The position numbers and the translations under genes are program-made. A DNA stretch of 64,000 nt from contig UQTU01000001.1 in the NCBI GenBank assembly GCA_900544135.1, forward strand, positions 47,678 through 111,677, written 5' to 3'. Shown piece by piece: positions 7,613 to 60,855 of the stretch; positions within the stretch are counted from its first letter, which is position 1, and the number at the start of each line of letters is the position of its first letter. The notes below the pieces were generated by a model, which was not told the DNA's origin, made no database searches, and was given only the letters and a program-made list of their open reading frames with translations. The DNA is from an uncultured Collinsella sp. Its GTDB lineage: Bacteria; Actinomycetota; Coriobacteriia; Coriobacteriales; Coriobacteriaceae.

Positions 7613-7626
7613 GGAGTTAAAACAGC

Positions 7627-9661: not shown

Positions 9662-9678
9662 GCTAAATGGCTATTTAG
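9662..9678. repeat. Crossover-site copy A (gctaaatGGCTatttag), inside the hsdS central conserved region where it encodes LNGYL
   Basis: Imperfect palindrome with an asymmetric 4-bp core GGCT. One of four copies (with B, C and D). Confidence 0.6.
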
Positions 9679-10278: not shown

Positions 10279-10848
10279 TCACACAGCTAAATAGCCATTT
10301 AGCTTTGAGTTATTCTTGATTTTCTTTTGGATGGTATCAATCACCTGAACGATTTTTGCTTGCTTCTCAAAAGTGGGCAATGGCATTGACAGCTTGCGAA
10401 AAGTACTCGTTGGACGCCCCAACGCCGGAACGCCAGTTTGCGTTTTATTCGAAAGTAACCGCCATTGCCCCTCTCGAGTATGAAAATAGTAGACAAAAAA
10501 TTTCGGTAGCACCTTGTCATTACAGCGAATGCGAAATTGGCTTTGCGAAATGACGTAGCGAGGATACTTGGAGTCATAGGGGACCATCGCGACTTGGCCC
10601 AACGTTCCACGGTGTGTTATTACGATATCGCCACGCGAGGCCAATGCGTTGCCCAGGGAATTTGCTTTTTCAGGAGTGACATAGCGCAGCGCAGTGTCGT
10701 TCGTCTCAAAGCCAGTTAGATTCGATCCATTAAATACCGGAATACCGGAGTTGACAAAGCAATCAGTCTTAATATTTGAGCCGAAGGGTCCCATGGCAAT
10801 CTCATCAATAAGATCCTCAACGCATACTTCTTCACTTTCGGCAATCAT
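10279..10848 (-). CDS. Half-size HsdS cassette (TRD1b plus central conserved region), translationally coupled to the upstream recombinase
   Basis: TRD-like body ending in a CCR-type helix (MPLPTFEKQAKIVQVIDTIQKKIKNNSKLNGYLAV*). Its ATG (10848-10846) overlaps the recombinase TGA (10847-10845) as ATGA. Confidence 0.6.
   Translation of the reverse strand: MIAESEEVCVEDLIDEIAMGPFGSNIKTDCFVNSGIPVFNGSNLTGFETNDTALRYVTPEKANSLGNALASRGDIVITHRGTLGQVAMVPYDSKYPRYVISQSQFRIRCNDKVLPKFFVYYFHTREGQWRLLSNKTQTGVPALGRPTSTFRKLSMPLPTFEKQAKIVQVIDTIQKKIKNNSKLNGYLAV
10285..10304. repeat. Crossover-site copy B (agctaaatAGCCatttagct), shared by the 3' end of + strand hsdS (encodes TQLNSHLA) and the 3' end of the minus-strand half-hsdS (encodes KLNGYLAV)
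   Basis: Same palindrome as A but with the core inverted (AGCC). The two convergent ORFs overlap through it. Confidence 0.6.
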
Positions 10849-11801
10849 TCCAAATACTTCCTATGCGAAGCCTTTACATTGTTCTGGTTTACCATGGCGT
10901 AATGCATGGTGGTGTCTATTTTCGCATGGCCTAGCAGCTTTTGCACCTGCTCTATGGGCATTCCTTTGTCAATAGCATGGGTAGCAAGCGTACGGCGAAA
11001 CTTATGCGGATGAACGCGATTGACGCCAGCGCTTCTGCCTAGGTCACGCAAGCGGAGCTCTATGTTCCCAACCGTAATACGTCGAGCTGAGGAATCGAGT
11101 GCGACAAAAAGCGCAGGGCTCTTGTCGGCACGGCTCGCAAGATATTCCGTGAGATGCAACTTGGCACGCGCGTCGAAGTAAACAGGGCGCTGTTTATTTC
11201 CCTTTCCCATTACAAGGCATTCGCGCTCATGCAAATTGACGTCCTTCCTGTCGAGTCGTACAAGCTCGCCAATGCGCATGCCGGTCGAAGAGAGAAGATC
11301 AACGATGGCAAGGTCCCGCTTGGATTCGCATGCATCTCGCAAGATCTCCAGCTCCTCGTCACTTAACACCTCTTTGGTTATTTGAGCAGTTTTGACGCGG
11401 CGAATACGCCTTACAGGGCTTTTAACAATATAGTCTTCATCCTCAAGCCACGAAAAGAAGCTCGACATAATGCGACGTATATTATCGATTGTGACTTTAC
11501 TGGAACCGCGAGCCGTCTCGTAATCATTGAGATAGCGCCGCAGGTCATCACTTTCGACCTGCGTATAGGACTTAGCAAGTGCCGCGTTCATATGCCGCAA
11601 AGTTGCCTCATAGTATGCAATAGTTTTAGGTGAGCATCCCTCAACTTCTTTAGCGGTGAGAAATAGCGAGAGCAGGTCTTGCCCTGGCTCTGCCTGTTTT
11701 GGTCCAAGCGTTTGCCTAAGTGTAATGGCTAGATGCTTGAGCTGGTGTGGGTCGAGAAGGCCCTGCATTTCCGAAAGCACGGTATTGATAACGGTTTCCA
11801 C
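10845..11801 (-). CDS. Tyrosine site-specific recombinase (phage-integrase/Xer family) embedded in the hsdS locus
   Basis: C-terminal catalytic-domain motifs (HKFRRTLATHAIDKGMPIEQVQKLLGHAKIDTTMHYAMV, catalytic Tyr in HY) and an N-terminal core-binding-like domain. Start taken at the GTG at 11801, which has SD GAAAGGAG 5 nt upstream. The tracked ORF extends to 11909 through site C. Confidence 0.8.
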   Translation of the reverse strand: METVINTVLSEMQGLLDPHQLKHLAITLRQTLGPKQAEPGQDLLSLFLTAKEVEGCSPKTIAYYEATLRHMNAALAKSYTQVESDDLRRYLNDYETARGSSKVTIDNIRRIMSSFFSWLEDEDYIVKSPVRRIRRVKTAQITKEVLSDEELEILRDACESKRDLAIVDLLSSTGMRIGELVRLDRKDVNLHERECLVMGKGNKQRPVYFDARAKLHLTEYLASRADKSPALFVALDSSARRITVGNIELRLRDLGRSAGVNRVHPHKFRRTLATHAIDKGMPIEQVQKLLGHAKIDTTMHYAMVNQNNVKASHRKYLE

Positions 11802-11860
11802 GCTGCTCCTTTCGTCGAGTACGATAGCCACAGTGTGGACGGCGCGTTGTACATAGTGAA

Positions 11861-11878
11861 GTAAATGGCTATTTAGCT
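11861..11878. repeat. Crossover-site copy C (gtaaatGGCTatttagct), just upstream of the silent TRD2b cassette and within the 5' extension of the recombinase ORF
   Basis: Core GGCT in the same orientation as A. On the minus strand it encodes TAQLNSHLL in the recombinase reading frame. Confidence 0.55.
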
Positions 11879-12628
11879 GTGCAGTGTGAGGCAATTGCTG
11901 AACGCGCAACAGGTGAAAATACCGTCCTGGAGTCGCTGTGCGACTTAGTGACCGAGAAAGCCGATTGCAGCGAAGCGGACTTCGATACCTATGTTTCTAC
12001 CGAGTCCCTCCTCCCTAACAAAATGGGCAGGCAGATAGCGTCGTCCCTACCTCAAACAGGGAAAGTGACGGTTTATCAAGCTGGGGATATTCTGATCTCC
12101 AATATCCGCCCCTATTTCAAGAAAATTTGGTACGCGGACCAAGCTGGAACGTGTTCCGGCGATGTTCTCGTATTTAGGGCAAAGCAACCAGAATGGGCGG
12201 GCTACCTTTATTCTTGCCTGCGCAATGATTCCTTTTTCGACTTCGTCATGAAGGGGGCTAAAGGCACCAAGATGCCGCGAGGCGACAAGAAGCAGATGCT
12301 TACCTACGTAGTCAGCGCCAGCCCAAACCAATTGGTAATCGGTTTCATGGCATCGGCGCTCAAGCACATATCAACCGCAAACAAAGAGAGTGAACATCTT
12401 GCTGCTCTTCGTGACGCCCTTCTCCCCAAGCTCATGTCCGGAGAGGTTGACGTCTCAAAGGTCAATCTCACGCAGCTAAATAGCCATTTAGCTGAGATCC
12501 TACGGCCATTCGGATGCCATATCCCCGCAATACAAAAACGGGGCAGCCCGCACTCCTGCGAACCGCCCCGTACCCCTGGCTATCGCGTCATAAGACCAAC
12601 CAGCACCACTCCCCTACTTCCCAAATAG
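11879..12628 (+). other. Silent hsdS cassette (TRD2b plus C-terminal conserved helix); no own start codon or SD
   Basis: TRD-like body ending LAALRDALLPKLMSGEVDVSKVNLTQLNSHLAEIL..., which parallels the end of the active hsdS (LVTLRDTLLPKLMSGEIDVSKVDLTQLNSHLA). It is preceded by site C (read as NGYLAV) and followed by site D. Confidence 0.55.
12474..12493. repeat. Crossover-site copy D (agctaaatAGCCatttagct), at the C-terminal helix of the TRD2b cassette
   Basis: Identical 20-mer to copy B; core AGCC. Confidence 0.55.
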
Positions 12629-13951
12629 CGCACCCAGCAGACCGCGGCGTTTGGGCTTTTCCTCTCGGTAGCAACCCTCGGCTGCTGCTGCCACCTGCCG
12701 CGGCTGCTCGCCACCTCCGCGGCGTACGATCTGGTATAGGAACGGCGACTTAACGTATTTGACCTCGATGGGCGTGGCGTGCACGGTGCTCTCGCCGGAC
12801 AGATGAAGGCTCAGGTTGAGCGGCGCCACGATATGCGTCTCGCGCTTGTCGCTAAACACCACCGCGGCCGCGCGGCCCGTCTGGCCGTTCACGGCGATGC
12901 GCACCTGCTCGCCGTCGCGGCTGTCCGTTGCCGGACGGTCGACAAAGTAAACCGGCACCATCACCAGACCGTCCTTATGCTTGCGAGCCTTGCGCGCCCA
13001 GGTGCGGATGCTCTTTTTATTGAGCCCCAGTACAACCTCGGCGTCGTTGCCCGCAACGTCGAGCGCCAGCTTATCAATGACCACCTGGTCCTTGGCAGAC
13101 GCATCGACGGAGACGACGCGAAAGTCACCTTCCTGCATGGCAGGGTCAAACGGCCCAACCTTGGCATAGTCCCACGGCTCCAAAATGCCCATGAGACGAA
13201 CGTCCAGGTAGTTTGCCCTGGGGTATGCCCAGTCGAGCACCTCGTAGTACACCAGGGTCTCCTTGCTCAGGCCCTTGCCCGGGAAGCTCGCCATCATACG
13301 CAGGTCCGCCAGCGCCATGGGGAAATAGAAGAGCATCATGTCGTTTTGGATCGCGTCTTCCACGTCGTGCCCGGCAAAGGCATCCGGGTACTGGCGCACC
13401 AGCTGCAGCGCGTTGGCACGTGCCTGCTGCGGCGAGATTTCGCAGGGAATACCCTGCTCCGGCACATACTCCGCACCCACACCCATGGTCAGACGTTTGC
13501 TAAACGTACCGGGCTTGAGCAGGTCGGCAATGCCGATCTTGTTGCCGCAGGACGGGCACTCAAACACACGCTGCGTTGACTCGCCCTCAAAGGACGCTCC
13601 GCAGAAGGGGCAAGGAATGCTCACATACGTGGCCTCTTGGAACTCCTGCGCCGTGCCGCGATCCTCCCACAGCAGATGTTCCAGGACCGACTGATTGCGC
13701 CAGTGCGAATTGAAGAAATACCAGTCCGGGTCCTCCGGGCGCTCGAGTTGCGACACATGCGTGAGCTTGAGCAGTCCATCCACCACCGTCAACGGCGTAT
13801 GGCGAATGCCCAAAGCGCTCTTGGGCTCTCCGGCGTCCGCCTGCCACGGAATGACCGCGCCGCAATAGGCGCACTCAAAGCTGCGCTTAGCCTGGTGCGA
13901 GTACATAGGGCCGCCGCAGTTTTGACATTTAATGGCAAACATCTCGTCCAT
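12614..13951 (-). CDS. Hypothetical protein with two zinc-ribbon motifs
   Basis: CQNCGG...CAYCG and CPFCG...CPSCG pairs. Start taken at the ATG at 13951, which has SD AAGGAGG 7 nt upstream. No other recognisable domain. Confidence 0.5.
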   Translation of the reverse strand: MDEMFAIKCQNCGGPMYSHQAKRSFECAYCGAVIPWQADAGEPKSALGIRHTPLTVVDGLLKLTHVSQLERPEDPDWYFFNSHWRNQSVLEHLLWEDRGTAQEFQEATYVSIPCPFCGASFEGESTQRVFECPSCGNKIGIADLLKPGTFSKRLTMGVGAEYVPEQGIPCEISPQQARANALQLVRQYPDAFAGHDVEDAIQNDMMLFYFPMALADLRMMASFPGKGLSKETLVYYEVLDWAYPRANYLDVRLMGILEPWDYAKVGPFDPAMQEGDFRVVSVDASAKDQVVIDKLALDVAGNDAEVVLGLNKKSIRTWARKARKHKDGLVMVPVYFVDRPATDSRDGEQVRIAVNGQTGRAAAVVFSDKRETHIVAPLNLSLHLSGESTVHATPIEVKYVKSPFLYQIVRRGGGEQPRQVAAAAEGCYREEKPKRRGLLGALFGK

Positions 13952-14169
13952 GGAAACGTCCTCCTTTGCACAGGGGCTATCGACGTTAAGTATGTCGAGC
14001 AAACAGGCACATGCCCATACCCATGTGGCCCAAAATGGACCACCCAGGCAGACGAGAAGGCTCGCTCGTTAGCACCGGCAGACCATTACTGCATTTTCTG
14101 AGCATCGGTGCACAGCGCCTCCGCGCGAGCTACACTATCCCCTTAAACATGATTGTGAGGACGACCGCT

Positions 14170-30860: not shown

Positions 30861-30958
30861 ATGATGAGCTCCGATGCGGGTTCGTGTTCTGACTGAACGA
30901 TTTTACCCCACGGCATGGACAGCACCCGAACCTAGCCAAACCCACACGGCTCCTCTTG

Positions 30959-31027
30959 CAGTTGCGGTGAAATGCGGACTGTTTGGCGGCTTTTTTGGCC
31001 AAAACAGTCCGTATTCCACCGCAAGTT
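30959..31027. repeat. Palindromic element family member E1 (about 25-bp arms, U-rich loop) directly downstream of addA
   Basis: agttgcggtgaaatgcggactgttt, loop ggcggcttttttggcc, then aaaacagtccgtattccaccgcaagtt. Diverged copy of E2 and E3. Confidence 0.6.
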
Positions 31028-40977: not shown

Positions 40978-42078
40978 ATGCACAACAAGCGCGTGCTCGT
41001 CGCCATGAGCGGCGGCGTCGATTCCAGCGTGACCGCGTATCTGCTCAAGCGCCAAGGCTACGAATGCGTCGGCGCCACCATGCGCCTCGTCTGCCCCGCG
41101 CCCGATCCCGTCACGGACATGAGCAAAGTCGACCGCGACATCGCCGATGCAAAGGCCGTCGCCGAGCGCCTGGGGATGCCCCACCATGTGCTCGACCTGC
41201 AGCAGACCTTCGACCGCAACGTTATCGAGCGATTTGTGACTGCCTATCAGGAGGGGCTGACGCCCAACCCATGCATCATCTGCAACCGCCATATTAAGTT
41301 TGGCGCGCTGCTCGATGCGGCACTCGATATGGGCTGCGACTACATCGCCACAGGTCACTACGCCAAAACGAGCCAGGCGTCCGACGGAACCTGGCAGCTG
41401 CACCGCGGCGAGGACCCTAAGAAGGACCAGAGCTACTTTTTGTATTCGCTCACGCAGGAGCGACTGTCGCGCACGATCTTTCCGCTGGCTGGGCTGGACA
41501 AAGAGCGCGACGTGCGCCGCATTGCCGCCGAGCAGGGCTTCATAAACGCCAAGAAAGCCGAGAGCGAGGATATCTGCTTTATCGCGGACGGCGACTATGC
41601 GGGCTATATCGAGCGCCGCTGCGGACATGCCGCCGAGCCGGGCGATATTGTATGGCGCGACGGCAGCGTGGTCGGACGCCATAACGGCGCGCTGCGCTAT
41701 ACCATCGGCCAGCGCAAGGGCCTGGGCGTCGCGATGGCGCATCCTGTGTATGTGACGGGCGTCGACGCCGCTAACAACACCGTGCATCTGGGCGAGGCCG
41801 AGGACCTGACGGCCACGGCGCTCACGGCCAACGACTGGATTTGGAGCGCCCCTGCCGACCACATGGAAGCCGAGCTGGATGCCGGCGGCATCCGCGTGGG
41901 CGCCAAGTACCGCTACCGACAGAAAGAGCAGGCAGCGATCCTTACGCGCGGCGAAGACGGGCAAATGTTGCTGACCTTTGACGAGCCGCAGCGAGCCATC
42001 GCCCCCGGCCAGGCAGTCGTTATCTACCGCGGCGACATCGTCCTGGGCGGCGGTACCGTGACCGGCGCCATCAAGTAG
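40978..42078 (+). CDS. mnmA: tRNA-specific 2-thiouridylase MnmA
   Basis: PP-loop motif (VAMSGGVDSSV), catalytic cysteines, and a C-terminal beta-barrel. SD AAGGAG upstream. Confidence 0.9.
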   Translation: MHNKRVLVAMSGGVDSSVTAYLLKRQGYECVGATMRLVCPAPDPVTDMSKVDRDIADAKAVAERLGMPHHVLDLQQTFDRNVIERFVTAYQEGLTPNPCIICNRHIKFGALLDAALDMGCDYIATGHYAKTSQASDGTWQLHRGEDPKKDQSYFLYSLTQERLSRTIFPLAGLDKERDVRRIAAEQGFINAKKAESEDICFIADGDYAGYIERRCGHAAEPGDIVWRDGSVVGRHNGALRYTIGQRKGLGVAMAHPVYVTGVDAANNTVHLGEAEDLTATALTANDWIWSAPADHMEAELDAGGIRVGAKYRYRQKEQAAILTRGEDGQMLLTFDEPQRAIAPGQAVVIYRGDIVLGGGTVTGAIK

Positions 42079-42093
42079 CCCCATCCCCTTCAT

Positions 42094-42162
42094 AAGTTGC
42101 GGTGAAATAGGGACTGTTTAAGCGTTTCAAGCCGCTAAATAGTCCCTATTTCACCGCAACTT
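42094..42162. repeat. Palindromic element E2 (27-bp arms), immediately downstream of mnmA and upstream of the HipA-like gene
   Basis: aagttgcggtgaaatagggactgttta, loop agcgtttcaagccg, then ctaaatagtccctatttcaccgcaactt. Confidence 0.65.
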
Positions 42163-42207
42163 TGTTAAGTATTATGATGTTTGTGCTTGCTATATTTAAC
42201 GATTAGA

Positions 42208-43605
42208 ATGCTTAACGAGGTGATGCAGCAGATGAATACTTCCAACTATATAACCATGGGTGACGCCGCGCGCCTGCTGGGCGTTACGAAGGCCCGTATA
42301 TCGCAACTGGCTGCATCGGGAACGCTCGCGTGCGATATCGTCGGTGGGCGGAAAATGGTTCAGTACGATTCCGCGATTGGTTATCAAAAGGTCCGTAAGC
42401 GTGGGCGCCGTCCCGCAGCTGACGTAGGGCGCAAGTTCACGTTGATGTCAACCGACCACGAGGTCGCGCATGTCTCGTTTGATCCAACGCGCGAGTTTTC
42501 CTTTGAAATTGCCGACATACTCGATGCACGAAGGATGCCGTTTGGCACGTGCTCGAGTTCTTCTCCAACGGTGAATAAACGAGCACTCAACACGTGGTGG
42601 AGTCACCGGTCGGTGCCCGACGTCCGCCCCGGACTCATCTCGCGCTATCGCGAGCTGGGAATTGACAGCGGTATTGAAGTGCCCGTTCGTTGCCTGGGTT
42701 TTTCGCTTTCGGATTGCTATTGGCTAAGACCGGTCGACTGCGACGAGCTCAATTGGCAGCACCTCAATTACTTCGAAAACAATTTTGAACGGTCGGCACC
42801 CGAGCATCGTTCAGGCTGGCTTGAGGGCATCGGACTCAAAAATCCTGACAATACGTCCGAGGGCGAGCTCCCCAAATCCTGGATGATCCGCAATGGCGTT
42901 CGCATCCTGGTTAAAGGATGCGGAATGGACGATCAGCGACCGTTTAACGAGGCGGTTGCAACAGCTCTACATCGGCGTCTGCTATCCAAAGGTGAGTTTG
43001 TTCCCTATACGGTCGAGCGCATGTTCGACGGGCCCGTATGCCTATGCGATGACTTTCTTAATGGCCGTGAGGAATACGTGCCGGCCGCTTATATCAGGGA
43101 CGCACTCGGTGGCCAGCGAGGAAACTCAACATACGATCGATACTGTCGCTTTCTTGGCAGACACGGGGCTGACGAAGCCACGGTAAGAAAATCCATGTCG
43201 CAGATGATTGTCTGCGATGCCCTCCTGGCCAACAGCGACCGCCACTGGCGAAACTTCGGCATCATCCGCAATGTCGACACGCTGGAAATGCGGCCTGCAC
43301 CGCTGTTCGATAGTGGCAATTGCCTGTGGTACAACGTGCCAACCGCCGTGCTCGTTGCCGGGGAGTTTGGATTTGCCGCCAAACCGTTTGGTCCGGACCC
43401 TTCCACTCAGCTAGCATTTGCTGACTCGCTCGATTGGTTCGATGCGTCGCATCTCGATGGGTTCGTCGACGAGGCAGTCGAAATCCTCTCACAAAGCGCA
43501 TGGGCAACAGCAGGCAATCGCCTCAAGGCCATCCGCCGCGGTCTCGAGCGCCGCACGATAGAGGTAAGCGCCGCCGTTGAGGTGCTACGGCACGTGCAGA
43601 GATAA
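42208..43605 (+). CDS. HipA-like Ser/Thr kinase domain protein with an N-terminal helix-turn-helix (single-chain HipH/YjjJ-like architecture)
   Basis: N-terminal HTH (MGDAARLLGVTKARISQLAASGTL). C-terminal HipA_C-like catalytic motif (LANSDRHWRNFGIIRN; PLFDSGNCLW). Start is ambiguous (42181, 42208, 42224 or 42256). Confidence 0.6.
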   Translation: MLNEVMQQMNTSNYITMGDAARLLGVTKARISQLAASGTLACDIVGGRKMVQYDSAIGYQKVRKRGRRPAADVGRKFTLMSTDHEVAHVSFDPTREFSFEIADILDARRMPFGTCSSSSPTVNKRALNTWWSHRSVPDVRPGLISRYRELGIDSGIEVPVRCLGFSLSDCYWLRPVDCDELNWQHLNYFENNFERSAPEHRSGWLEGIGLKNPDNTSEGELPKSWMIRNGVRILVKGCGMDDQRPFNEAVATALHRRLLSKGEFVPYTVERMFDGPVCLCDDFLNGREEYVPAAYIRDALGGQRGNSTYDRYCRFLGRHGADEATVRKSMSQMIVCDALLANSDRHWRNFGIIRNVDTLEMRPAPLFDSGNCLWYNVPTAVLVAGEFGFAAKPFGPDPSTQLAFADSLDWFDASHLDGFVDEAVEILSQSAWATAGNRLKAIRRGLERRTIEVSAAVEVLRHVQR

Positions 43606-43619
43606 CAGCACTGCCCCCT

Positions 43620-43688
43620 AAGTTGCGGTGAAATAGGGACTGTTTGGCGGTTTTAAACGCTTAAACAGTCCCTATTTCACCGCAACTT
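43620..43688. repeat. Palindromic element E3, between the convergent HipA-like and M42 peptidase genes
   Basis: Arms identical to E2 (aagttgcggtgaaatagggactgttt / aaacagtccctatttcaccgcaactt); loop ggcggttttaaacgct. Confidence 0.65.
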
Positions 43689-43740
43689 ACAGTGGGCGGC
43701 CTCGGTCGGTACTGCTGTGCCAGCCGAGGCCGCTGCTCCC

Positions 43741-44760
43741 CTAGCGCTGCACGTAGGCGCGGACGAGCTCGTAGGTGTTGCGCACGCCGTCGATGTGGCT
43801 GCGCTCGTAGTTGTGGCTCGCGTACACGCCGGGGCCGATCAGACCGTGACGGATGTCGTAGCCGGCAGAAAGCGTGGCCTCAACGTCCGAGCCGTAATGC
43901 GGGTACACGTCGATGGCGTAATCAAGCTCGAGCTCGCGCGCGATGTTGGACAGCGTGGTCACCAGGTCGTAGTTGTAGGGGCCACCCGAATCCTTAGCGC
44001 AAATCGAAACCATGCGCTCGGTGCAGCCCAGGTCGTCGCCCACGCAGCCCATGTCCACGCTGATCATCTCGCGCGTGTCGGCCGGCACGAAAGCGCCGCC
44101 GTGGCCGACCTCCTCGTACACGGTGAAGAGCAGCGACACCTTGCGCGAAAGCGACACCTCGCCGTCAGCAACGGCGCGGGCCAGACCCAGCAGAATCGAC
44201 GCCGACAGCTTGTCATCCAGGAAGCGGCTCTTAATGTAGCCGCTCTCCGTCACCGTGGTACGCGGATCCATAGCGATGATGTCGCCCGTCTGAATGCCCA
44301 GCTCAAGCACGTCATCCTTGCTGTCGACATTCTCGTCGAGCAGGATTTCCATGTTCTTCTCGATGGTCTTGACCGGCTCGTCGGCCACGTGCGCCGAAGG
44401 CTCGGTATTGAGGACCACACCCGTGTACACATTGCCGTCACGCGTGTAGACGGTGCAGTTCTCGCCATCGGCCGTAGACCACTGGTGCCCACCAAGCGTC
44501 GTGGGACGCAGCCGACCATTGTCCTTAATGGAACGCACCATGGCGCCCAGGGTGTCGACATGGCTCGCCAGTACGAGCGGCTCACCCTCGCCGCCAAGCT
44601 CGACCAGCACGTTGCCCTTATTGGAACGCTCGGGGCCAAAGCCCATATCGCGCAACGTTTCCATCAGATAATCAGTCGCCGCACGGGTATAGCCCGTAGG
44701 CGAAGCAATCGAGGTAAGCGCCTTCAACTGGTCAGTAATATAGGAGAGCGTAGAATCCAT
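43741..44760 (-). CDS. M42-family metallo-aminopeptidase
   Basis: Full-length M42 pattern (ASHVDTLGAMV, EEVGHGGA, metal-binding His/Asp/Glu positions). Start at the internal ATG (MDSTLSYI). Confidence 0.8.
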   Translation of the reverse strand: MDSTLSYITDQLKALTSIASPTGYTRAATDYLMETLRDMGFGPERSNKGNVLVELGGEGEPLVLASHVDTLGAMVRSIKDNGRLRPTTLGGHQWSTADGENCTVYTRDGNVYTGVVLNTEPSAHVADEPVKTIEKNMEILLDENVDSKDDVLELGIQTGDIIAMDPRTTVTESGYIKSRFLDDKLSASILLGLARAVADGEVSLSRKVSLLFTVYEEVGHGGAFVPADTREMISVDMGCVGDDLGCTERMVSICAKDSGGPYNYDLVTTLSNIARELELDYAIDVYPHYGSDVEATLSAGYDIRHGLIGPGVYASHNYERSHIDGVRNTYELVRAYVQR

Positions 44761-44892
44761 CTTGGACACCAAAGTCACCCTTTCATATCGAATTAAACCC
44801 ACAGCAACAATACCACCGCGAGCCATCTTTTTACCTAGCGAGATGACCCATCGAGCTCGCCAGGACTGCGCCCGCCACGATAACGAGCCGGC

Positions 44893-45013
44893 GGCCCCCT
44901 GCCGTTAGCCCCACAATCTTTCCGCAGGACGGAGGAAGCCCCCGCCGCACGAAGTGCGCAGCGGGGGCTTCCGACATGTCCGAGGACGATTGTGGGGCTA
45001 ACGGGCAGGGGCC
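44893..45013. repeat. Nested palindrome directly downstream of the Fe-ADH gene: outer 26-bp near-perfect IR, inner 12-bp IR
   Basis: Outer arms ggccccctgccgttagccccacaatc / gattgtggggctaacgggcaggggcc. Inner arms ggaagcccccgc / gcgggggcttcc. Confidence 0.6.
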
Positions 45014-45025
45014 CGCCGAACCAAG

Positions 45026-50384: not shown

Positions 50385-50460
50385 ACCCGGCACTTAGGGA
50401 CGTTCCTTAACTGCCGGCAGAAAAGGAACGTCCCCAAATGCCGGCAGTTTGGGACAGTCA
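50385..50460 (-). terminator. Long hairpin (12-bp stem gggacgttcctt/aaggaacgtccc around the palindromic ctgccggcag) plus U-run, between the relB-like gene and the CPBP gene
   Basis: On the minus strand the stem-loop is followed by UAAGUGCCGGGUUUU and then the CPBP SD. The 21-mer aaggaacgtccctaagtgccg recurs at 56465-56485. Confidence 0.4.
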
Positions 50461-50661: not shown

Positions 50662-51221
50662 GGCGCTTCCTTTTTGAAACGACGGTAGTGCGGATAGATG
50701 CGGGCCACGCGGCTGGGCGACGGGCTGTGAAGGCAACCCGATTGGCCCGCATCTGGAGTTTGTTTCTGCGGCGTTGGTATTACTTGGTATTCTTAAGTAT
50801 TACCCCCAGATAGAATACCACACCCGACCCCATGGGGACGAAGGAAAACGGATCATTTTGTTGCTGAATTAGTATTTAGAGCGTGATGATGTCCGAGATA
50901 TCGAGGGCCTGAGCGTCGGCGGCATCGTGCGTGGCAAGCAACAGCATGCGACCGTCGAGCGCCGGCGCCCACGGCGCCCGGTCGACCACGGCAAGCGCAA
51001 GCTCCGCTGCAACCCCGCCGCCACAGGGCCGCCAGCACGCCCATAACCGCCCTCACCTTTTGATTCGCGTACGACGTGGAAGGGGCGCGACGAACGTCGG
51101 CACATGGCGCGTCCGATCTGGGTATCCGTCGCATGGTGTCCTATGTCCTGCATAATTTTACTTGCAACATGCATAAAAAGACGGGGGCGCCCCTCCCCGT
51201 CCCAACGTACCCCCGCTTGGA

Positions 51222-51458
51222 CCGTGCAAAAACCGGAGTTTTCAGCATCGCGGCCCCCGCCGGCGGCGCCGCGAATCGTGGATGCCGCGCGATCGGCGTC
51301 GTTTTGGGGCACGGCGCGACGCGAAACGCGCGCTATCGCAGCGGCGGACCCCGTCCGCCAGCCCAAGTTGCCCGTCGGGGGATCCCGCGAGACCGAATAG
51401 ACGCTTCCGGCGCGTATGCAGCCACCCCGGCTTGCTGAAAACTCCCGAAAATGCACGG
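51222..51458. repeat. Inverted-repeat-bounded 237-bp element, copy 1 (paralog at 57507-57744)
   Basis: Terminal 26-mers ccgtgcaaaaaccggagttttcagca / tgctgaaaactcccgaaaatgcacgg. Flank similarity to copy 2 extends about 25 bp upstream and about 50 bp downstream. Confidence 0.55.
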
Positions 51459-51761
51459 CGCGCCCCGGGGGACCCGTGCGTGCCGTTAAAAACACGCTCG
51501 CATCCAAAAGTATGCGAACGTGGGAGCCAGATGGCGGCAAGGACGCCAAGCACTGGGACGGAATCCCGGACGTGTCCACCCGGGCACTTCAGCCACCGCG
51601 CGTCAGCAGAAAACCTCATGCCCTGCGCCGATGTCGGATAGCCCATCCCCCATATCAACCCTTTGCGCAAAACGGCAATGCCCCGTCCACGCAAATACGC
51701 GAACGGGGCATTGTTCAAATTGTGCCGTCAGTGACTCTTTTGCGCCAGCGGCCTTCTAGCT

Positions 51762-53144
51762 CTAGCTAAGCTCGGGCCAGTAACCCTTGTTGGCCTCGAT
51801 CATGTCGTCGAGAACCTCCTTGGCGACCTTCATCGACGGCACGGTCTTGTTGAGCGTAAAGGCCTTGAGTGCCTTCTCGTACGAACCCTCGATCGTGGCC
51901 TCGACCACGAGCTTCTCGGAGTTCAGCTGCTGCATCATAAGACCCTGCTGGAACAGCGGAATGTTGTCGCGGCTGATGACCTCGGGGCCGTTCTTGCCAA
52001 TGTAGGCAGGCAGCTCGACCATGGCGTCGTAGGGCATGTTGGGGATAGCGCCCTTGTTCTCGCAAATGACCAGGAAGCGCTGCTTGGTGTCGTTCTTCAG
52101 AGCGATGGCCAGGTCGGCAATCCAGTCGCCGTGGCTGCCCGCATAGAACGTGCTCTCGTCGATCTCGCCCGTCTTCTCGTAGTGATCGATACCATCAAAG
52201 AGGTTCTTCTCGCGCGTCTCCTCAACCTCGTTAGCACGGGTGCGCTCGGGGTTGGAATGCTCGACGAACTCCTTCTGCTGCAGGTAGTAGTTCAGGTACG
52301 TGTTGGGCAGGTACTCCGGGAAGCACTCCATGATCTCGTACTCGCCCTTCCAGACGTAGTACCAGCTGCCCTTGGTGTGGCGGTTCTGCTCGGGGTGCTC
52401 GTCGGTGGCCTCCTCGGGCTTCTTGGACATCAGCGAGCTCATGCCCTTGAGGTACGAATCGGGCAGCAGAATCTCATGCTCCTTGATGTACTCGCGCAGC
52501 TGCGGGAGCACCTCCTCGCCCTTGTGGCGGATCGAGGTGAACCAACCAAAGTGGTTGAGGCCAAAGTAATCGTACTCGACATCCTTCTTGTCGATATCGA
52601 GCGCGGCGCAAACCACGTCGATAATCGCGATCGGCATGTCGCAGATGTTGATGATGCGAGCGTTGGGGCGCAGGACGCGGCAGCCCTCGGAGACGATGGC
52701 GGCAGGGTTGGAGTAGTTGAGAATCCAGTAGTCCTTCTTGGCATACTTCTCAACGTCGTCAATCAGCTCGACCATGGGGAAGATGGTGCGCATGCCGTAG
52801 GCAAGGCCGCCGCAGCCGCAGGTCTCCTGGCCCACGCAGCCGTGACGCAGCGGAATCTTCTCGTCCTGCTCGCGCATGGCATAGCCGCCCACGCGCATCT
52901 GGGCAAACACGAAGCTCGCGTCCGTAAAGGCAGTCTCCTTGTCGGTGGTCACCGTGAGCTTGATGTCCAGGCCGAGGTCCTCGTGCAAAATCCAGTCCAC
53001 GAGCACGCCGATCTTGCGCTGGCGCTCCTCGTTGATGTCGTACAGACGAATCTCGTCAACGTCGAGCTCGTCCTTGCGAAGAGCGATGGACTTGACGATG
53101 CCGGGGGTAAAGGTGGATCCGCCACCACACAGAGTAATGATCAT
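51762..53144 (-). CDS. glvA: Glycoside hydrolase family 4 6-phospho-alpha-glucosidase (maltose-6'-phosphate glucosidase GlvA/MalH-like)
   Basis: Near full-length identity pattern with the GH4 phospho-alpha-glucosidases: NAD-binding N-terminus GGGSTFTPG, GVVGQETCG, NYSNPAAIV, ICDMP, C-terminal TVPNA/SMKVA region. SD GAAGGAG upstream of the ATG. Confidence 0.85.
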   Translation of the reverse strand: MIITLCGGGSTFTPGIVKSIALRKDELDVDEIRLYDINEERQRKIGVLVDWILHEDLGLDIKLTVTTDKETAFTDASFVFAQMRVGGYAMREQDEKIPLRHGCVGQETCGCGGLAYGMRTIFPMVELIDDVEKYAKKDYWILNYSNPAAIVSEGCRVLRPNARIINICDMPIAIIDVVCAALDIDKKDVEYDYFGLNHFGWFTSIRHKGEEVLPQLREYIKEHEILLPDSYLKGMSSLMSKKPEEATDEHPEQNRHTKGSWYYVWKGEYEIMECFPEYLPNTYLNYYLQQKEFVEHSNPERTRANEVEETREKNLFDGIDHYEKTGEIDESTFYAGSHGDWIADLAIALKNDTKQRFLVICENKGAIPNMPYDAMVELPAYIGKNGPEVISRDNIPLFQQGLMMQQLNSEKLVVEATIEGSYEKALKAFTLNKTVPSMKVAKEVLDDMIEANKGYWPELS

Positions 53145-53147
53145 TGT

Positions 53148-54764
53148 TTACTGCTCCTTCTCAATTGCGTTTTCGACCTTGTCGCGCATCTCGGCGACCT
53201 TCATGCCAAAGATGATCTGGATATTGTTGCCGTTGCGGTTGATGCCGCTGTTGGGCACGTGGTTGATGAGGTCCTCATTGATGAGGTCCGGGTTCTTAAC
53301 GTTCACGCGGAGACGCGTAAAGCAGTTCTCGAGCTCCTCGATGTTGTCCTTGCCGCCAAGACCTGCGACCAGGTCGGCAATGCCCGCATCGACGCCCTCT
53401 GCGGGAGCCGCGGCAACAGCGCCCTGCTTCACCGCGACAGACGCGGCGGCCTCGCCCTCGGCAACGGACTCGGCGAGCTCGGATTCCTCCTCGCGACCAG
53501 GCGTGTGGAGGTTGAGCTTCTTAATAAGGAAGGTGAAGAGGAAGAAGTACAGAGCGGCGTTGACGACTCCGAGCACCAGCATGACCGGCCAGTTGGTCTT
53601 GTCGACACCGAGGACCAGGTTGGAGACCACGATGTTGATGATGCCGCCTGCAGTCGAAGCGGGCACGGAGAGGACCTTGAGCAGGACCAGGAAGATGCCG
53701 GAAAGAACCGAGTGAACGACAAAGAGCACGGGAGCGGCAAAGACAAAGAGGAAGTCCATGGGCTCGGTCACGCAGGAAAGCACGGCGGTGATGATCAGCG
53801 GGATGATGACAGCCTTGGTCTTGTCCTTGTTCCCCTTGTAAGCGGTGAAGATAAAGGCGAGACCGATACCGATGTAGGGCCACAGGTTGTTGAAGGTGTA
53901 GCTGTTGAAGTAGGTGCTATCGGAGAAGGGCTGGCCCGTCATTGCCATCTCGGCGACACGGATGGGATAGGCGCCGGCGATAACCTGATCGCCCAGCGTC
54001 AGGGTGCCACCCACATCGGAGAACTGGAACGGGGTGTAGATGAGGTGGTGCAGACCGGTGGGAACGAGCAGCTTGTTGAGCATGCCGTAGATAAACAGAC
54101 CGATGTTGCCCGACTCCTTAATGATGCCGGCAACGGAGGAGATGGCACCCTGAACCGGAGGCCAAACGATGCAGAAGCCAGCGCCCATGATCCAGGAGAT
54201 GATGATCATGATCAGGAACGGGAAGCGAACGCCCGAGAACATCGAAAGAGCAATGGGGAACTGCTTGTTCGAGTACTTGTTGAACACGGCACCGGTGATG
54301 CAGCCCAGGATAATGCCGCCGAACACGCCGGTATCGAGCACCTGGATGCCCATAACGGTGGCCTGGCCGGTTCCGGTAAGGCCGAGCATGCCACTCGCCT
54401 CGGCAAGAGAACCGGTGGCGTTGAGCACGATGTTATTGGCCTGCAGGAACAGGAAGAACGACATCAGGGCGATCAGCGAAGCGTGGCCCTTGTTCTTCTT
54501 TGCCATGGCGCCGGCGATGCCCACGCAGAACAGAATCGAGAGGTTGTTGATGATAAACATCAGCGACTGATAGACAACGGCGCCCACAAGCTGGAACGGA
54601 CCGGAGCCCAGCACGGGAATCACGGCGCAGATGGTCTTGTTGGTCAGAATAATGCCCACGATGAGCAGGATGCCGGCAACCGAGAGATACATCATCGGCT
54701 GAACGATCGACTTCGCGAACACCTCCAACGGCGCTTTGAAATTGAACTTCTTTTTTGCGGTCAT
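53148..54764 (-). CDS. PTS glucose/alpha-glucoside family EIICB component
   Basis: EIIC membrane domain followed by an EIIB domain with the conserved Cys (LENCFTRLRVNVK). Its stop overlaps the glvA SD. Confidence 0.85.
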   Translation of the reverse strand: MTAKKKFNFKAPLEVFAKSIVQPMMYLSVAGILLIVGIILTNKTICAVIPVLGSGPFQLVGAVVYQSLMFIINNLSILFCVGIAGAMAKKNKGHASLIALMSFFLFLQANNIVLNATGSLAEASGMLGLTGTGQATVMGIQVLDTGVFGGIILGCITGAVFNKYSNKQFPIALSMFSGVRFPFLIMIIISWIMGAGFCIVWPPVQGAISSVAGIIKESGNIGLFIYGMLNKLLVPTGLHHLIYTPFQFSDVGGTLTLGDQVIAGAYPIRVAEMAMTGQPFSDSTYFNSYTFNNLWPYIGIGLAFIFTAYKGNKDKTKAVIIPLIITAVLSCVTEPMDFLFVFAAPVLFVVHSVLSGIFLVLLKVLSVPASTAGGIINIVVSNLVLGVDKTNWPVMLVLGVVNAALYFFLFTFLIKKLNLHTPGREEESELAESVAEGEAAASVAVKQGAVAAAPAEGVDAGIADLVAGLGGKDNIEELENCFTRLRVNVKNPDLINEDLINHVPNSGINRNGNNIQIIFGMKVAEMRDKVENAIEKEQ

Positions 54765-54863
54765 AGCGGTACTCCCCTTCCTTTTCCGCAAATTGAGATA
54801 GGTGTGCCCTGGACAAGACCGTGAGCCTTGCCTTATATCAATCGATGTGTGGGCACGTTATGC

Positions 54864-55730
54864 CTAGAGACCAGGTTCTCCAAGCAGGTTAACAATGTGA
54901 TATGCGAGATAACTCTTCTCGGCATTGGTAACGACAACGTTATAGGTAGACGCCAAGTGGGCGGCTATGGCGTCCGCGCACGAGAACGCGCACGGATACT
55001 TAGTTTCATCGATTCGGAACAGTGCATCGTCATTGATCTGCCCGGCCGCGGGGTCAAGCGCCCGCTGTGCGAAAAACTGCAGGTGGCGGACGAAACGCTC
55101 ATAGGGCAGCGAGGTGTCATCGAGGGTCGTAGCATAGCGCTCGGAAACAATCGCGAGCACGTCGCGAACAAGCTGGACCGAAATGATGAGGCGGTCGGAG
55201 CGTTGCGGCATGGTGGCGTTGACGATATGCAGCGTAATAAAACCCTGCTCTTCTTCGCTCATCTGGATGCCCATATACTCCTTGACAATCTGCAGCGCAC
55301 GGCCCGCAAGCGCATACTCCTTGCGATAGAACTGCTGGATCTCGAGCAGCAACGGATTCTCGCAGGGGACGCCCTTGCGCTCGCGCTCCAAAGCAAGGCT
55401 GATATGGTCTGCAAGAGCAATGAGAATCTTGTCGTTGACATCAACATTGAGCTCTCGACGGAGCATCTGAACAATGTCCTCGGAAATCACGAGGTTGACG
55501 GTGGGAATGGACTCCAAAAGATGTGCCAAGCGGTCAATCGTACGCGAATCCTGAGAAGTGCCCTCCTGCAGCGCATAGGTCTTTTCGACCGATGCTTCAT
55601 CGATAGCGTCGCCGGCATGACGGCCAAAGCAGAGGCCTCGACCGATGACAATGAGCTCGAAGCCATCGTCCGAAGTGACCATTGCGACGTTATTGTTGAA
55701 AACTCGCTTGATAACCACGGTACCCGCCAC
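54864..55730 (-). CDS. BglG/LicT/SacY-family PRD-containing transcription antiterminator
   Basis: CAT RNA-binding N-terminus (VIKRVFNNNVAMV) and two PRD regions with conserved His. Exact start uncertain (GTG at 55730 or 55719). Confidence 0.8.
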   Translation of the reverse strand: MAGTVVIKRVFNNNVAMVTSDDGFELIVIGRGLCFGRHAGDAIDEASVEKTYALQEGTSQDSRTIDRLAHLLESIPTVNLVISEDIVQMLRRELNVDVNDKILIALADHISLALERERKGVPCENPLLLEIQQFYRKEYALAGRALQIVKEYMGIQMSEEEQGFITLHIVNATMPQRSDRLIISVQLVRDVLAIVSERYATTLDDTSLPYERFVRHLQFFAQRALDPAAGQINDDALFRIDETKYPCAFSCADAIAAHLASTYNVVVTNAEKSYLAYHIVNLLGEPGL

Positions 55731-55736
55731 AAGAAT

Positions 55737-56250
55737 TTACTCGGAAAGCCAGACGACAGGCTCTTTAACAGTAACAGGGCCGGAAGCGTGCTCACGAAGA
55801 GTCGAGTTCTCCGAACGCTCGCATACAATAACGAAGACCGTGGGGTCGAAGCCAGCGGCGCGAACCGCGTCGAAATCGACCTCGACGAGGGGCTGGCCCG
55901 CGTCGACATGGTCACCCTGAGCAACAAGCGCATGGAAGCCCTTGCCCTCAAGTTTAACAGTGTCGATTCCGATATGCAGCATCACCTGAGCAGAGCTGTC
56001 TTCGGACATGATGCCCAGCGCGTGCTCAGTCGGAAACAACGCCGCGACGGTGCCGGAAACAGGAGCGCACACCGTTCCCTCTTGGGGAACCACGGCAACG
56101 CCATCGCCCACGGCACGGCTGCTAAAAGCGGGGTCATTGGTATTTTCTAGATGAACAAGCTCGCCAGAAACGGGAGCGAGGATTTCGAACTCGGAGGTCG
56201 CAGTCTTCTGCTCATCCGAACCGCCCATCAGGCGAGAAAAGAAACCCATG
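55737..56250 (-). CDS. PTS glucose-family EIIA component
   Basis: EIIA-Glc signature around the phosphorylatable His (VMLHIGIDTVKLEGKGFHALV). Start ambiguous (56250 or 56267). Confidence 0.8.
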
Positions 56251-56328
56251 GTGGCATGTCCCTTCATAAATATAGCCCAACCAAAATCAAGCGAATGCAT
56301 CCATAGAGACACACCCGTTCAAAGACTT

Positions 56329-56385
56329 TGGTTAGGCCCACGTCCGAGGGACTCGGTAACCTTCCGCATTTCTTTTTACGGGAGT
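56329..56385 (-). promoter_or_regulatory. Candidate RAT-like antiterminator target plus overlapping terminator in the leader of the PTS operon
   Basis: On the minus strand, GGTTACCGAGTCCCTCGGACGTGGGCC has the GTTAC-stem-loop-stem architecture of RAT elements. It is followed by gggcctaaccaaa...tttggttgggc plus TATATTT. The match is loose. Confidence 0.25.
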
Positions 56386-56529
56386 TATTGTAGACAAGCC
56401 CAAAGCCAGAACAATCATTATGACCGGTGAGCGGTATTTTTTCTTCGATAAACGGTATTTAGGCGGCACTTAGGGACGTTCCTTTCCCGCCGGCACCCAG
56501 GGACACTCCTTGCAGCAATTTCGCATGCG

Positions 56530-57291
56530 TTAGATGAAGAGCTCGCATTCCTTCCACACGACGCAAGCCTTGCTCAGCATCTGGGAAACAGCGGATAGCT
56601 TGTTGGGATCAAGCTTGCGAGCGCCTCGCGGGCATACGGCGATGCAGCGCATGCAGGAGATGCACGCCTCGCCAGCTGCTCGTTTGGGGTCACCCTTGTC
56701 GATAGCACAAACGGGGCACGCCGCGGCGCATGCACCGCAGGAGACGCAATCCTCTGTTGCCTCGGGTGCCATGCGGTGACCTCTGGCTTGTTTATAAGGA
56801 CGATTGCCGGGAATAGAGGGCTCAGATGTATCCTCAGCCAACAGCTTTTGCTGAATTTGCTGCGCAAACTCTGCGAGCTGCGCCGCATCCTGCGCATCCG
56901 GACGACCGGCAGCAAACTGTCGCGCAATGGAATGTTCTGCAATGGCTGCAACTGCCGCGATTACCCGGAATCCCGCATGCTTCGCAACGTCCTCCAGCTC
57001 TACGAGCGTGTCCTCAAACGCGCGGTTTCCGTAGACGCACACCAGAACGGCCCGCGCTCCGTTGCCGTGAACCATGTTCAGTCGGTCGACCGCCACGGCA
57101 GGAACTCTGCCGGCATACGCTGGCACGGAGATAACAGCCACGTCGTCCTTCGTCATCGAGACCTCGTGGAAATCCAACCCGCTATCGGTCAGATCGACGG
57201 TAACGGTATTCTTGTCCAGCGCTTCAGCCACAAGGCCAGACACCTTCCGCGTTCCACCCGTCGGACTAAACACAATTTCGAATACGCTCAT
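56530..57291 (-). CDS. Flavodoxin-like domain protein fused to a 2x[4Fe-4S] ferredoxin domain
   Basis: N-terminal flavodoxin fold (MSVFEIVFSPTGGTRKV). C-terminal CxxCxxCxxxCP motifs (CVSCGACAAACPV; CISCMRCIAVCPRG). SD GGAGGG upstream. Confidence 0.7.
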   Translation of the reverse strand: MSVFEIVFSPTGGTRKVSGLVAEALDKNTVTVDLTDSGLDFHEVSMTKDDVAVISVPAYAGRVPAVAVDRLNMVHGNGARAVLVCVYGNRAFEDTLVELEDVAKHAGFRVIAAVAAIAEHSIARQFAAGRPDAQDAAQLAEFAQQIQQKLLAEDTSEPSIPGNRPYKQARGHRMAPEATEDCVSCGACAAACPVCAIDKGDPKRAAGEACISCMRCIAVCPRGARKLDPNKLSAVSQMLSKACVVWKECELFI

Positions 57292-57506
57292 CGAGGCACC
57301 CTCCCCCTACGCCTAGCAACGCGTCAGGCCGTTTTCACATTCAGACAGAGTATACGGCGCATGGGGGGAGCTCCCCGTTTTGGTGCGCCAGGCACCCCAA
57401 TGCACCCACCCTACGCTGTCTGCCTCTTCGTTTTGTATAAATTACGGTACAGATTGTATATATTTACGGGATACCGCCGCGTTCTCCTGAGGTACCCCAT
57501 CCTGGC

Positions 57507-57744
57507 CCGTGCAAAAAACGGAGTATTCTGCAACGTGACCGCGCCAGCACCGCCGCGGGTGGGCAAAACTGTAGGGCGCCGTATCATTCTAAGTCCCGAC
57601 ATGGCGAGAATGACGCGCCCCCTGCTCCGGAAAACGGCGAAATCTGACTCGGAACGCTCGCTAGGGATATCCGAAGGCCACCGTTGGCGACGTCGAATCA
57701 TATGCAGACAACTCGAACTGCAGAATACTCCAAAAAATGCACGG
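57507..57744. repeat. Inverted-repeat-bounded 238-bp element, copy 2 (paralog of 51222-51458)
   Basis: Terminal 26-mers ccgtgcaaaaaacggagtattctgca / tgcagaatactccaaaaaatgcacgg. Same end structure and length as copy 1. Confidence 0.55.
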
Positions 57745-57917
57745 CGCACCCCATAGGACCCATTGCTGCATGGCAGGAAACAAGCCCACGGCATCCTCTA
57801 GATGCATTCCCGAGGAAATCACATTTGAACTAGCGATCGGATACGGCAAACAAAAGGGCCCCGAACGTAGTTGCTCGGGGCCCTTGGTTCACCTCGCTCT
57901 AGCGGGCGATGCGTATG

Positions 57918-60456: not shown

Positions 60457-60677
60457 TGTCTCAATCTGTAACAGTTACGGGGCAAAACCAGGTTCCTACT
60501 GTTACAGATCGAGACATTCAGTCAGCCCCTTGGCTAACATCTCGATCAGTAACATCTACAGGGCAAATCTTCCTCTACGTGTTACAGATCGAGACAAACG
60601 GTCGACACGGCCCACAAACGTCTCAATCTGTAACAGTTACGGAGCAAAACCGGCCCCAATTGTTACAGATCAAGACA
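60457..60677. repeat. Cluster of five copies (two direct, three inverted) of the 17-mer TGTCTCRATCTGTAACA in the DEAD-box/FHA intergenic region
   Basis: Direct copies at 60457-60473 and 60619-60635, each extending to a 33-bp direct repeat. Inverted copies (tgttacagatcgagaca) at 60500-60516, 60580-60596 and 60661-60677. Two of these form 17-bp-arm hairpins with roughly 26-nt loops. Confidence 0.65.
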
Positions 60678-60855
60678 GAGGGGAATTTCCGTCCAGTCCA
60701 AACCAAATCTCTCAGTCTTCCTGCAATTTCGAACATGTGGCCTATAATGTTGCTTTGGTTACGCTATATATTGCGCAGCCATTTAATACGTCGCCCACCG
60801 GGGGGCATTAATTCCTATCGCCATATTGGCTAGGAAGCAATCAAAGGAGGTATCC

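Follow-up and report, generated by a model that had tools for sequence, protein, structure and literature searches.

A Collinsella family of non-coding intergenic modules with inverted, helically phased sites that may act as DNA

Introduction

When two non-coding elements in neighbouring intergenic regions carry the same long inverted ends, do they act as RNA, as mobile DNA or as DNA that stays in place? The question is raised by a stretch of 64,000 nucleotides from an uncultured Collinsella sp. (contig UQTU01000001.1), here called the window, in which a first-pass annotation had described two paralogous elements of ~240 bp on the + strand, copy 1 at 51222-51458 and copy 2 at 57507-57744. Both positions were borne out. 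As candidates the annotation had named a miniature inverted-repeat transposable element (MITE), a structured small RNA (sRNA) family and a cis-regulatory RNA. Here we find that the two copies belong to an undescribed, Collinsella-restricted family of non-coding intergenic modules, and that each module is best explained as acting as DNA, neither as a folded RNA nor as a transposon. The reading that we favour, with a probability of roughly 0.45, is tentative: a helically phased and, as predicted from its sequence, intrinsically curved DNA segment whose two inverted sites would be bridged by a putative protein.

Collinsella is a prevalent genus of the human gut whose gene regulation is little known, and the module family is among the most strongly conserved of its non-coding sequences. 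The case also carries a more general caution, in that long terminal complementarity in intergenic DNA need not imply either an RNA helix or a transposon.

Distribution and anatomy of the modules

The suggestion that the two elements represent a paralogous, repeated non-coding family with further copies proved correct, since more than 200 were found, nearly all of them in Collinsella. A scan of a genome collection with CCGTGCAAAAANCGGAGT and a scan of metagenomes with CCGTGCAAAAANCGGAGTNTTC each gave at least 120 matches, and 208 full copies were examined, 206 of which enter the counts of length and pairing given below. Among the 120 genome-collection matches listed, 118 were in genomes of Collinsella or other Coriobacteriaceae; organism labels are lacking for the metagenome contigs, whose elements cluster with the same types. 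Two of the retrieved loci, L050 and L059, were chance matches. A phage or plasmid origin was considered and rejected: there was no phage match, the single match to a viral contig being a chance match in a coding region, and the sole match labelled as a plasmid is a 900-kb Collinsella replicon. A search of the literature on Collinsella brought up no description of elements like these.

At least eight paralog types can be distinguished by interior and locus, and each type occupies one fixed orthologous locus across many species. Copy 2 is type A, and copy 1 is type B, which is close to type F. Type C is located 56 bp beyond the stop codon of an asparaginase gene, type D adjoins sufS/iscU, type E lies between genes for an M42 peptidase and an iron alcohol dehydrogenase (ADH), and type F is upstream of groES-groEL, where no CIRCE-like operator was found ahead of groES; type G is represented by L110 and type H by L216 and L225. 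Several types coexist in one genome, with at least four in that of Collinsella sp. 4_8_47FAA and five matching places on a 900-kb C. aerofaciens replicon. Neither the window nor ~0.9 Mb of Collinsella loci yielded any further, divergent copies.

The homologous unit is ~330 bp long and collinear in types A, B, D, E and F. Each 26-bp arm is composed of an R box, CCGTGCA (core CGTGCA), an A/T spacer of 5-6 bp and an L box, CGGAGTWTTCWGCA. An outer motif, GTACCCC, is found ~15 nt ahead of the 5′ arm and has its inverted partner, GGGGACC, after the 3′ arm, while an inner TATGCA is invariably located at -44 relative to the 3′ end. Two TGYATA boxes precede the 5′ arm; of 81 copies, 80 have them at precisely -73 and -52, and one has its first box at -74. 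This double box occurs nowhere in the window except in the two modules, and nowhere else in the ~0.9 Mb of Collinsella loci. Types C and G are without boxes, measure 215-216 bp and have arm spacers that are complementary to each other.

In the window, the 5′ consensus first proposed, CCGTGCAAAAAMCGGAGTWTTCWGCA, has two exact matches where 0.00 are expected. The 3′ consensus had to be amended: it matches nowhere and carries one base too many, the actual 3′ ends being the 26-mers tgctgaaaactcccgaaaatgcacgg and tgcagaatactccaaaaaatgcacgg, and the corrected pattern CTCCNNAAAATGCACGGCGC matches exactly twice. The termini are indeed inverted except for an A-run of 5-6 nt, which is on the + strand in both arms of each copy. 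The reported similarity of the flanks is real and reaches beyond what had been described, the homologous block extending from 51149 to 51475 and from 57434 to 57761. The interiors have diverged, as was stated, but not completely, for copy 1 and copy 2 are still 44% identical in register versus 28% out of register. It was also correct that no credible coding sequence overlaps either copy and that minus-strand genes surround them; each copy sits between two such genes, just past the minus-strand terminator of the upstream one. The positions of the individual parts are collected in Table 1.

Selection and helical phasing

The distribution of nucleotide diversity within the module was determined in type A from 23 genomes. 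The adjacent gene had a diversity of 0.171 at 4-fold sites and 0.044 at codon positions 1 and 2, and the module had 0.128 in the interior, 0.087 in the leader, 0.062 in the boxes and 0.019 in the 5′ outer motif and arm. The arms are accordingly ~9-fold more conserved than synonymous sites and vary less than codon positions 1 and 2 of the neighbouring gene, and the interiors are close to neutral. This pattern places function in the arms and the boxes.

The length of the module is nevertheless kept. Among the 206 copies, 170 measure 236-239 bp (238 bp, n=98; 237 bp, n=65; 236 bp, n=6; 239 bp, n=1), 35 measure 214-216 bp (215 bp, n=32; 214 or 216 bp, n=3) and a single one 258 bp. Paralog interiors are 35-54% identical at their best offset, which is 0 or +1, versus 25-28% out of register, some types not being detectably related; the register between paralogs includes 1-nt shifts that look compensating. 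The 258-bp copy, a type A module at L073, is the only large length variant among the 208 and has its interior CGGAAAA heptamer expanded from two to five copies, a slippage of three times 7 nt (+21 bp).

These lengths translate into whole turns of the double helix. The arm centres are 189.5, 211.5 or 232 bp apart, corresponding to 18.0, 20.1 and 22.1 turns of 10.5 bp, and the box centres lie 63 and 84 bp, or 6 and 8 turns, from the centre of the 5′ arm. As in looping operators, two conserved sites are separated by whole turns and the spacer between them is free.

The interior itself carries a rhythm of the same period. When the A/T content of the interiors of five types was summed in register, a single peak was obtained, which spans 10.0-10.75 bp and has its maximum at 10.25 bp (z = 6.8); elsewhere in the range of 8-14 bp the signal did not rise above noise. 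Taken individually, six of the eight types are periodic at p < 0.05, types C and G included, the interiors of which do not cluster by BLAST with those of any other type. Among 396 control windows from the same sequence the mean z was 0.03, and the observed mean of 2.04 was never reached by eight controls in 20,000 draws (p below 5e-5). The periodicity is also in phase with the sites: in the six types with a best period of 10.5 bp the A/T maxima fall at 7.4-10.2 (mod 10.5), and the terminal runs are centred at 8-9.5. Such periodicity is a signature of DNA that is intrinsically curved or wrapped on protein, and a helical-repeat rhythm in phase with the sites is what phased nucleoprotein sites display; the curvature of the modules is a prediction from their sequence. 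Since patches of A/T recur at ~10.5 bp in phase with the runs in the arms, a planar bend is predicted, with both arms on the same side. The A-runs on the same strand in both arms would be better explained as belonging to these phased A/T tracts of curved DNA than as an internal loop. It is rare for an inverted pair of sequence-specific sites to be combined with a spacer that is nearly neutral yet constant in length and with an A/T rhythm at the helical repeat that is in phase with the sites.

A DNA loop or an RNA helix

The model that we favour builds on these features. An inverted pair of 26-bp bipartite recognition sequences would be held by a spacer of almost free sequence and fixed length, such that the arm centres come to lie 20 turns apart (18 in types C and G), with the two TGYATA boxes 6 and 8 turns upstream of the 5′ arm. 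A putative sequence-specific protein, a dimer or a higher oligomer, would occupy both arms and thereby close or wrap a loop of ~210 bp, and the loop may in turn control the adjacent TGYATA region or the intergenic gap, e.g. through promoter activity, as an insulator or topological barrier, or in recombination. If a protein does close these loops, the family would allow short DNA loops and intrinsic curvature to be studied in vivo in a system that nature supplies in several copies, and would point to a new regulator or architectural protein. One may speculate further that the modules are genus-specific, self-contained architectural elements, in which curved loops of ~20 turns, closed by a dedicated protein and accompanied by phased boxes, serve as switchable promoters or as insulators or topological barriers. 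This extension we regard as doubtful; if true, it would represent a kind of bacterial cis-element without a described counterpart.

Repression loops are the closest known relatives of such an arrangement. In araO2-araI1, the sites of which are ~210 bp apart, and likewise in lac, gal and deo, two sites some 200 bp apart lie on the same face of the helix, and the spacer between them is free in sequence and stepped in length by the helical turn. The arm centres of the modules, at 18.0, 20.1 or 22.1 turns, resemble this, but the modules differ in having a 26-bp inverted pair at six or more loci per genome, a periodic spacer, extra phased TGYATA boxes and no consistent regulated gene. In lambda attP and in cer/psi with their accessory sequences, several protein sites stand in fixed helical phase over ~250-300 bp and the DNA is wrapped. 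The modules likewise have several sites in fixed phase at that scale; unlike these systems, they have a symmetric inverted pair and several chromosomal copies, and no linked integrase, prophage or plasmid context was found.

Several observations weigh against a protein-closed DNA loop. No binding protein was identified and no family-linked gene was found beside the modules, and the adjoining genes share no function across the family, nor do they form an obvious regulon. Substitutions that stay within the A/T or the G/C class are not overrepresented among interior polymorphisms (12% versus 19% at 4-fold sites), so that current selection on the periodic pattern is not detectable. The TGYATA boxes could represent a promoter that reads into the element. 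The complementarity from end to end, made up of the outer pair and the helices P1 and P2, is also what a hairpin of RNA or of single-stranded DNA needs, and whole elements fold better than shuffled sequence on both strands (z -2.7 to -4.9). Finally, some changes do keep pairing: in P2, T-A has become A-T in L089 and L117, and in P3 of type A, U-A has passed via U.G to C-G in a seemingly compensatory manner.

The last of these points serve the main rival, namely that the modules are a family of independently transcribed non-coding RNA (ncRNA) genes. TGYATA-N15-TGYATA would then be a dedicated promoter, and a transcript of ~290 nt would be closed by the outer pair, P1 and P2 around an A-rich internal loop, its long irregular stem being functional, e.g. 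as a platform for RNase III or another protein or as a sponge for RNA polymerase or a protein. The AT-rich boxes do stand at a fixed distance and face the element, and the module behaves as a unit of its own between genes, either there in full or missing entirely. Predictions give the end-to-end helix on either strand and in four of five type alignments, and the outer pair retains its complementarity in all types despite sequence differences among them. As far as the possibility of this helix goes, the earlier proposal of a structured sRNA or cis-regulatory RNA stands; the manner in which the helix varies does not support it.

Of the 4120 cells that P1 and P2 comprise in the 206 copies, 91% are Watson-Crick pairs, and fixed W.W, G.G and C.C mismatches occupy 299, A.C 48 and G.U 14, so G.U is neither in excess nor enriched over A.C. 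T.T is fixed throughout type C (34 copies) and in 35 of the 46 copies of type D, A.A is found in 13 copies of the F/B cluster, and G.G and C.C mismatches are fixed in whole types. Variation in the arms is almost exclusively an exchange of A and T at four positions, and it is independent between the two arms, whereas in the interior 73% of the changes are transitions. Indifference to A:T versus T:A is typical of DNA readout and not of an RNA helix. Nor is the A/A internal loop, a feature described by the first-pass annotation, general: in types A, B, D, E and F the R and L boxes are separated by an A/A spacer, but in type H, which in its own sense orientation has T-runs where the other types have A-runs, it is T/T, and in types C and G it is paired. 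Binding to DNA is in keeping with a spacer that is rich in A/T whichever strand carries the A-run, and as a whole the patterns in arms and spacers are accounted for better if duplex DNA with an A/T spacer is recognized sequence-specifically than if an RNA helix relies on a functional A/A loop. When the end-to-end helix was searched for compensatory changes, no signature of wobble or covariation emerged beyond the few double changes that keep pairing; in type D, RNAalifold found double changes in only two of 52 predicted pairs. Assignment of a strand by wobble pairs was equivocal.

The folding of the whole element can be ascribed to its terminal repeat. Folded alone, the interior does not depart from shuffled sequence on either strand (z -1.8 to +1.8), and no interior RNA fold is common to the paralogs, which have only P1 and P2 in common. 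An interior that is unstructured and nearly neutral, yet fixed in length, is not expected of an RNA gene, and a role as RNA would give no reason for A/T-rich stretches to recur every ~10.5 bp in phase with the arms. The boxes make a poor sigma-70 promoter, their spacing as such being 18-20 nt, and scans detected neither a sigma-70-type promoter nor a + strand terminator at either copy; types C and G lack boxes altogether. Rfam covariance models run on six types gave no relevant match at the gathering threshold, at E<=10 or at E<=0.5. The only Rfam family in the window is the Collinsella-1 RNA (RF01700) at 3918-4117 on the minus strand, a full-length match (149 bits, E=1e-38) unrelated in sequence to the modules. 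With multi-copy sRNA families and 6S-like rod RNAs the modules have in common a conserved upstream AT-rich region, a possible 5′-3′ helix and several paralogs per genome; they differ in lacking a covariation signature, a structured interior, a terminator and an Rfam family, and in showing constraint on length and a periodicity of the DNA type. On balance, we consider transcription into a functional RNA unlikely, though it is the most serious of the competing explanations.

Other roles for the transcript or the interior were considered and rejected. No reading frame is open across types, candidate open reading frames (ORFs) are truncated in orthologs and variable sites are spread evenly over the three phases; with no conserved frame and no codon-periodic substitutions, neither a protein-coding gene nor a type I toxin mRNA is tenable. 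A retron msr-msd was dismissed, as what lies directly downstream is not a reverse transcriptase gene but groES or the 3′ end of a convergent gene (GH4, helicase, suf or ADH). An interior acting as antisense guide was likewise discarded, having no significant matches elsewhere in the window.

Mobility and inversion

Next in rank comes the possibility that the modules are relics or domesticated derivatives of a MITE-like transposon, in which the arms are terminal inverted repeats and their binding partner is a transposase or a host protein of transposase descent. Length and curvature would then be selected, as very short elements must bend for synapsis of their ends. The modules are multi-copy, intergenic, 215-238 bp long and bounded by inverted repeats, and a bipartite arm with an A/T spacer resembles some transposase binding sites. 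They also vary in presence between strains. Locus L003, with an identical 4Fe-4S protein, differs from the filled site L001 by an indel of ~440 bp that takes in the boxes, the element and its tail, with microhomology of at most 1-2 bp. In the window, the type E module is absent at 44827-45025, between the genes for the M42 peptidase (98% identical) and the iron alcohol dehydrogenase, and here the entire intergenic segment together with the first ~20 codons of the peptidase gene has been replaced. The indel at L003 and the segment replacement at the type E locus indicate that modules are gained or lost as blocks through recombination in the flanks.

In one rearrangement the breakpoint coincides exactly with an arm terminus. 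At L216 (4850-5220) and at L225, the left flank, boxes, leader and 5′ arm of type D are joined to an opposite-facing type H module, complete with boxes of its own at -73 and -52, and synteny with type D stops exactly at the arm end. One inverted-repeat core is thereby flanked on both sides by inward-facing double boxes.

Against transposition stands, first of all, the lack of target-site duplications: none is seen when the filled site L001 is compared with the empty site L003, and no direct repeats abut the inverted repeat in copies 1 and 2. The ~440-bp indel far exceeds the inverted repeat, and conserved, collinear sequence including the boxes extends ~75 bp outside it on one side only. Each type keeps to one orthologous locus, no two loci have a recent common interior and young copies are absent. 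Arms far more conserved than neutral sites are unexpected of immobile relics, and neither a longer autonomous version nor a linked transposase was seen. The MITE proposal is therefore poorly supported, and we judge a transposon ancestry of this kind to be quite improbable.

A similar distinction can be drawn from the intergenic repeats Correia/NEMIS, ERIC and REP/BIME, which resemble the modules in that they are short non-coding sequences with inverted repeats at their ends, occur between genes in multiple copies and often follow directly on a gene 3′ end; BIMEs combine inverted units with sites for DNA-bending proteins and gyrase. The modules differ from MITEs and from these repeats by the absence of target duplications, by having one type per locus, diverged interiors with selected arms and boxes outside the repeat, and by occurring in a few copies and not in tens to hundreds.

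In a type A module at L131 (NZ_OY725717.1; 6275-7780 of the locus), an IS256-family element has inserted exactly at the inner TATGCA box with a duplication of 8 bp.

That the arms serve a recombinase, making the modules invertible, phase-variable segments or excisable minicircles, is very improbable: a segment of ~200 bp between inverted repeats beside promoter-like boxes does resemble known invertible promoters, and phased curvature with integral-turn spacing would favour synapsis or circle closure, but not one of the 208 copies carries its interior in flipped orientation, the junction diagnostic of a flipped type A has 0 matches in the metagenome collection, all 47 full type A copies from both scans and the window are in the normal orientation, no excision scar was found in the loci examined and no recombinase gene is present among the window ORFs scanned. 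Compared with fimS and the invertons of gut bacteria, with which they share a segment of ~200-300 bp bounded by inverted repeats, a promoter-like neighbour and a gut bacterium as host, the modules differ, besides this absence of inverted alleles and junctions, in that the A/T spacers of their arms are mostly not mutually inverted.

Gene setting and other features of the window

Table 1. Parts of the two modules and adjacent terminators (window positions)
Feature	Position	Strand	Remarks
Copy 1 (type B), double TGYATA box	51149..51175	+	TGCATA at 51149 and 51170, starts 21 nt apart; -73 and -52 from arm
Copy 1, outer inverted motif, 5′ half	51207..51214	+	GTACCCCC
Copy 1, 5′ arm	51222..51247	+	R box CCGTGCA, A-run spacer, L box CGGAGTTTTCAGCA
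Copy 1, spacer/interior	51248..51432	.	185 bp; non-coding, unstructured, ~10-bp A/T periodicity; inner TATGCA box 51415-51420
Copy 1, 3′ arm	51433..51458	+	TGCTGAAAACTCC CGAAAA TGCACGG; 5′ arm inverted, A-run excepted
Copy 1, outer inverted motif, 3′ half	51467..51475	+	GGGGGACCC
GH4 gene, intrinsic terminator	51488..51522	-	Context outside the module, right of copy 1
Copy 2 (type A), double TGYATA box	57434..57460	+	TGTATA at 57434 and 57455
Copy 2, outer inverted motif, 5′ half	57491..57498	+	GGTACCCC
Copy 2, 5′ arm	57507..57532	+	CCGTGCA AAAAA(A) CGGAGTATTCTGCA
Copy 2, spacer/interior	57533..57718	.	186 bp; inner TATGCA box 57701-57706
Copy 2, 3′ arm	57719..57744	+	TGCAGAATACTCC AAAAAA TGCACGG
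Copy 2, outer inverted motif, 3′ half	57756..57761	+	GGACCC
DEAD-box helicase gene, intrinsic terminator	57845..57885	-	Context outside the module, right of copy 2

Proteins identical to ones from the window are encoded on contigs of Collinsella assemblies. Between the two copies are minus-strand genes for a 4Fe-4S protein, PTS EIIA, a LicT/BglG antiterminator, PTS EIICB and a GH4 glycosidase. The PTS/LicT/GH4 cluster (51762-56312) varies among strains. It is missing from C. aerofaciens TSDC17.2-1.1 (L131, NZ_OY725717.1 392223-404496), where the 4Fe-4S gene is directly followed by genes for an NAD(P)-binding protein and an [FeFe] hydrogenase, and in L004-L006 the cluster is present and copy 1 absent. 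A segmental duplication of element plus gene was rejected as the origin of the two copies, since only the ~330-bp module and a separate hairpin repeat are common to both sites. The ORFs neighbouring copy 1 are not paralogs of the Fer4 gene. The hairpin-forming repeat, of 32 nt (CGGCACTTAGGGACGTTCCTT...), occurs twice at 50388-50446 and once at 56464-56495 after the 4Fe-4S gene, ~6.05 kb apart, and is a family separate from the modules. In L062, at about 2240-2470, another separate element is found between the type F module and groES, a foldback of ~190 bp with perfect inverted arms of 37 bp (CTCCCGTGTGGCTCCGGAGGGGCGGGGCATAAGGTTT...).

Further repeats were noted in the window. At 60458-60682, shortly ahead of the start of the DEAD-box helicase gene (60221, minus strand), an 81-nt unit that contains an inverted repeat (GTCTCRATCTGTAACA...TGTTACAGATCRAGAC) occurs three times in tandem. 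A near-perfect palindrome of 70 nt (TAAGTTGCGGTGAAATAGGGACTGTTT...AAACAGTCCCTATTTCACCGCAACTT) is present in three copies, at 30958-31027, 42093-42162 and 43619-43688, the last two of which bracket ~1.5 kb without a called high-GC3 gene (42078-43741).

A type I restriction-modification locus extends from 4517 to 14002, with hsdR at 4517-7612 and an hsdM that is apparently split into 7627-8058 and 8074-9150. Within it, a direct repeat of 96 nt (79% identical) at 10209-10304 and 12398-12493, in a stretch of lower GC, possibly represents duplicated hsdS halves, and a minus-strand ORF at 12614-14002 has a weak match to a TNB domain of the Cas12f/TnpB-like kind.

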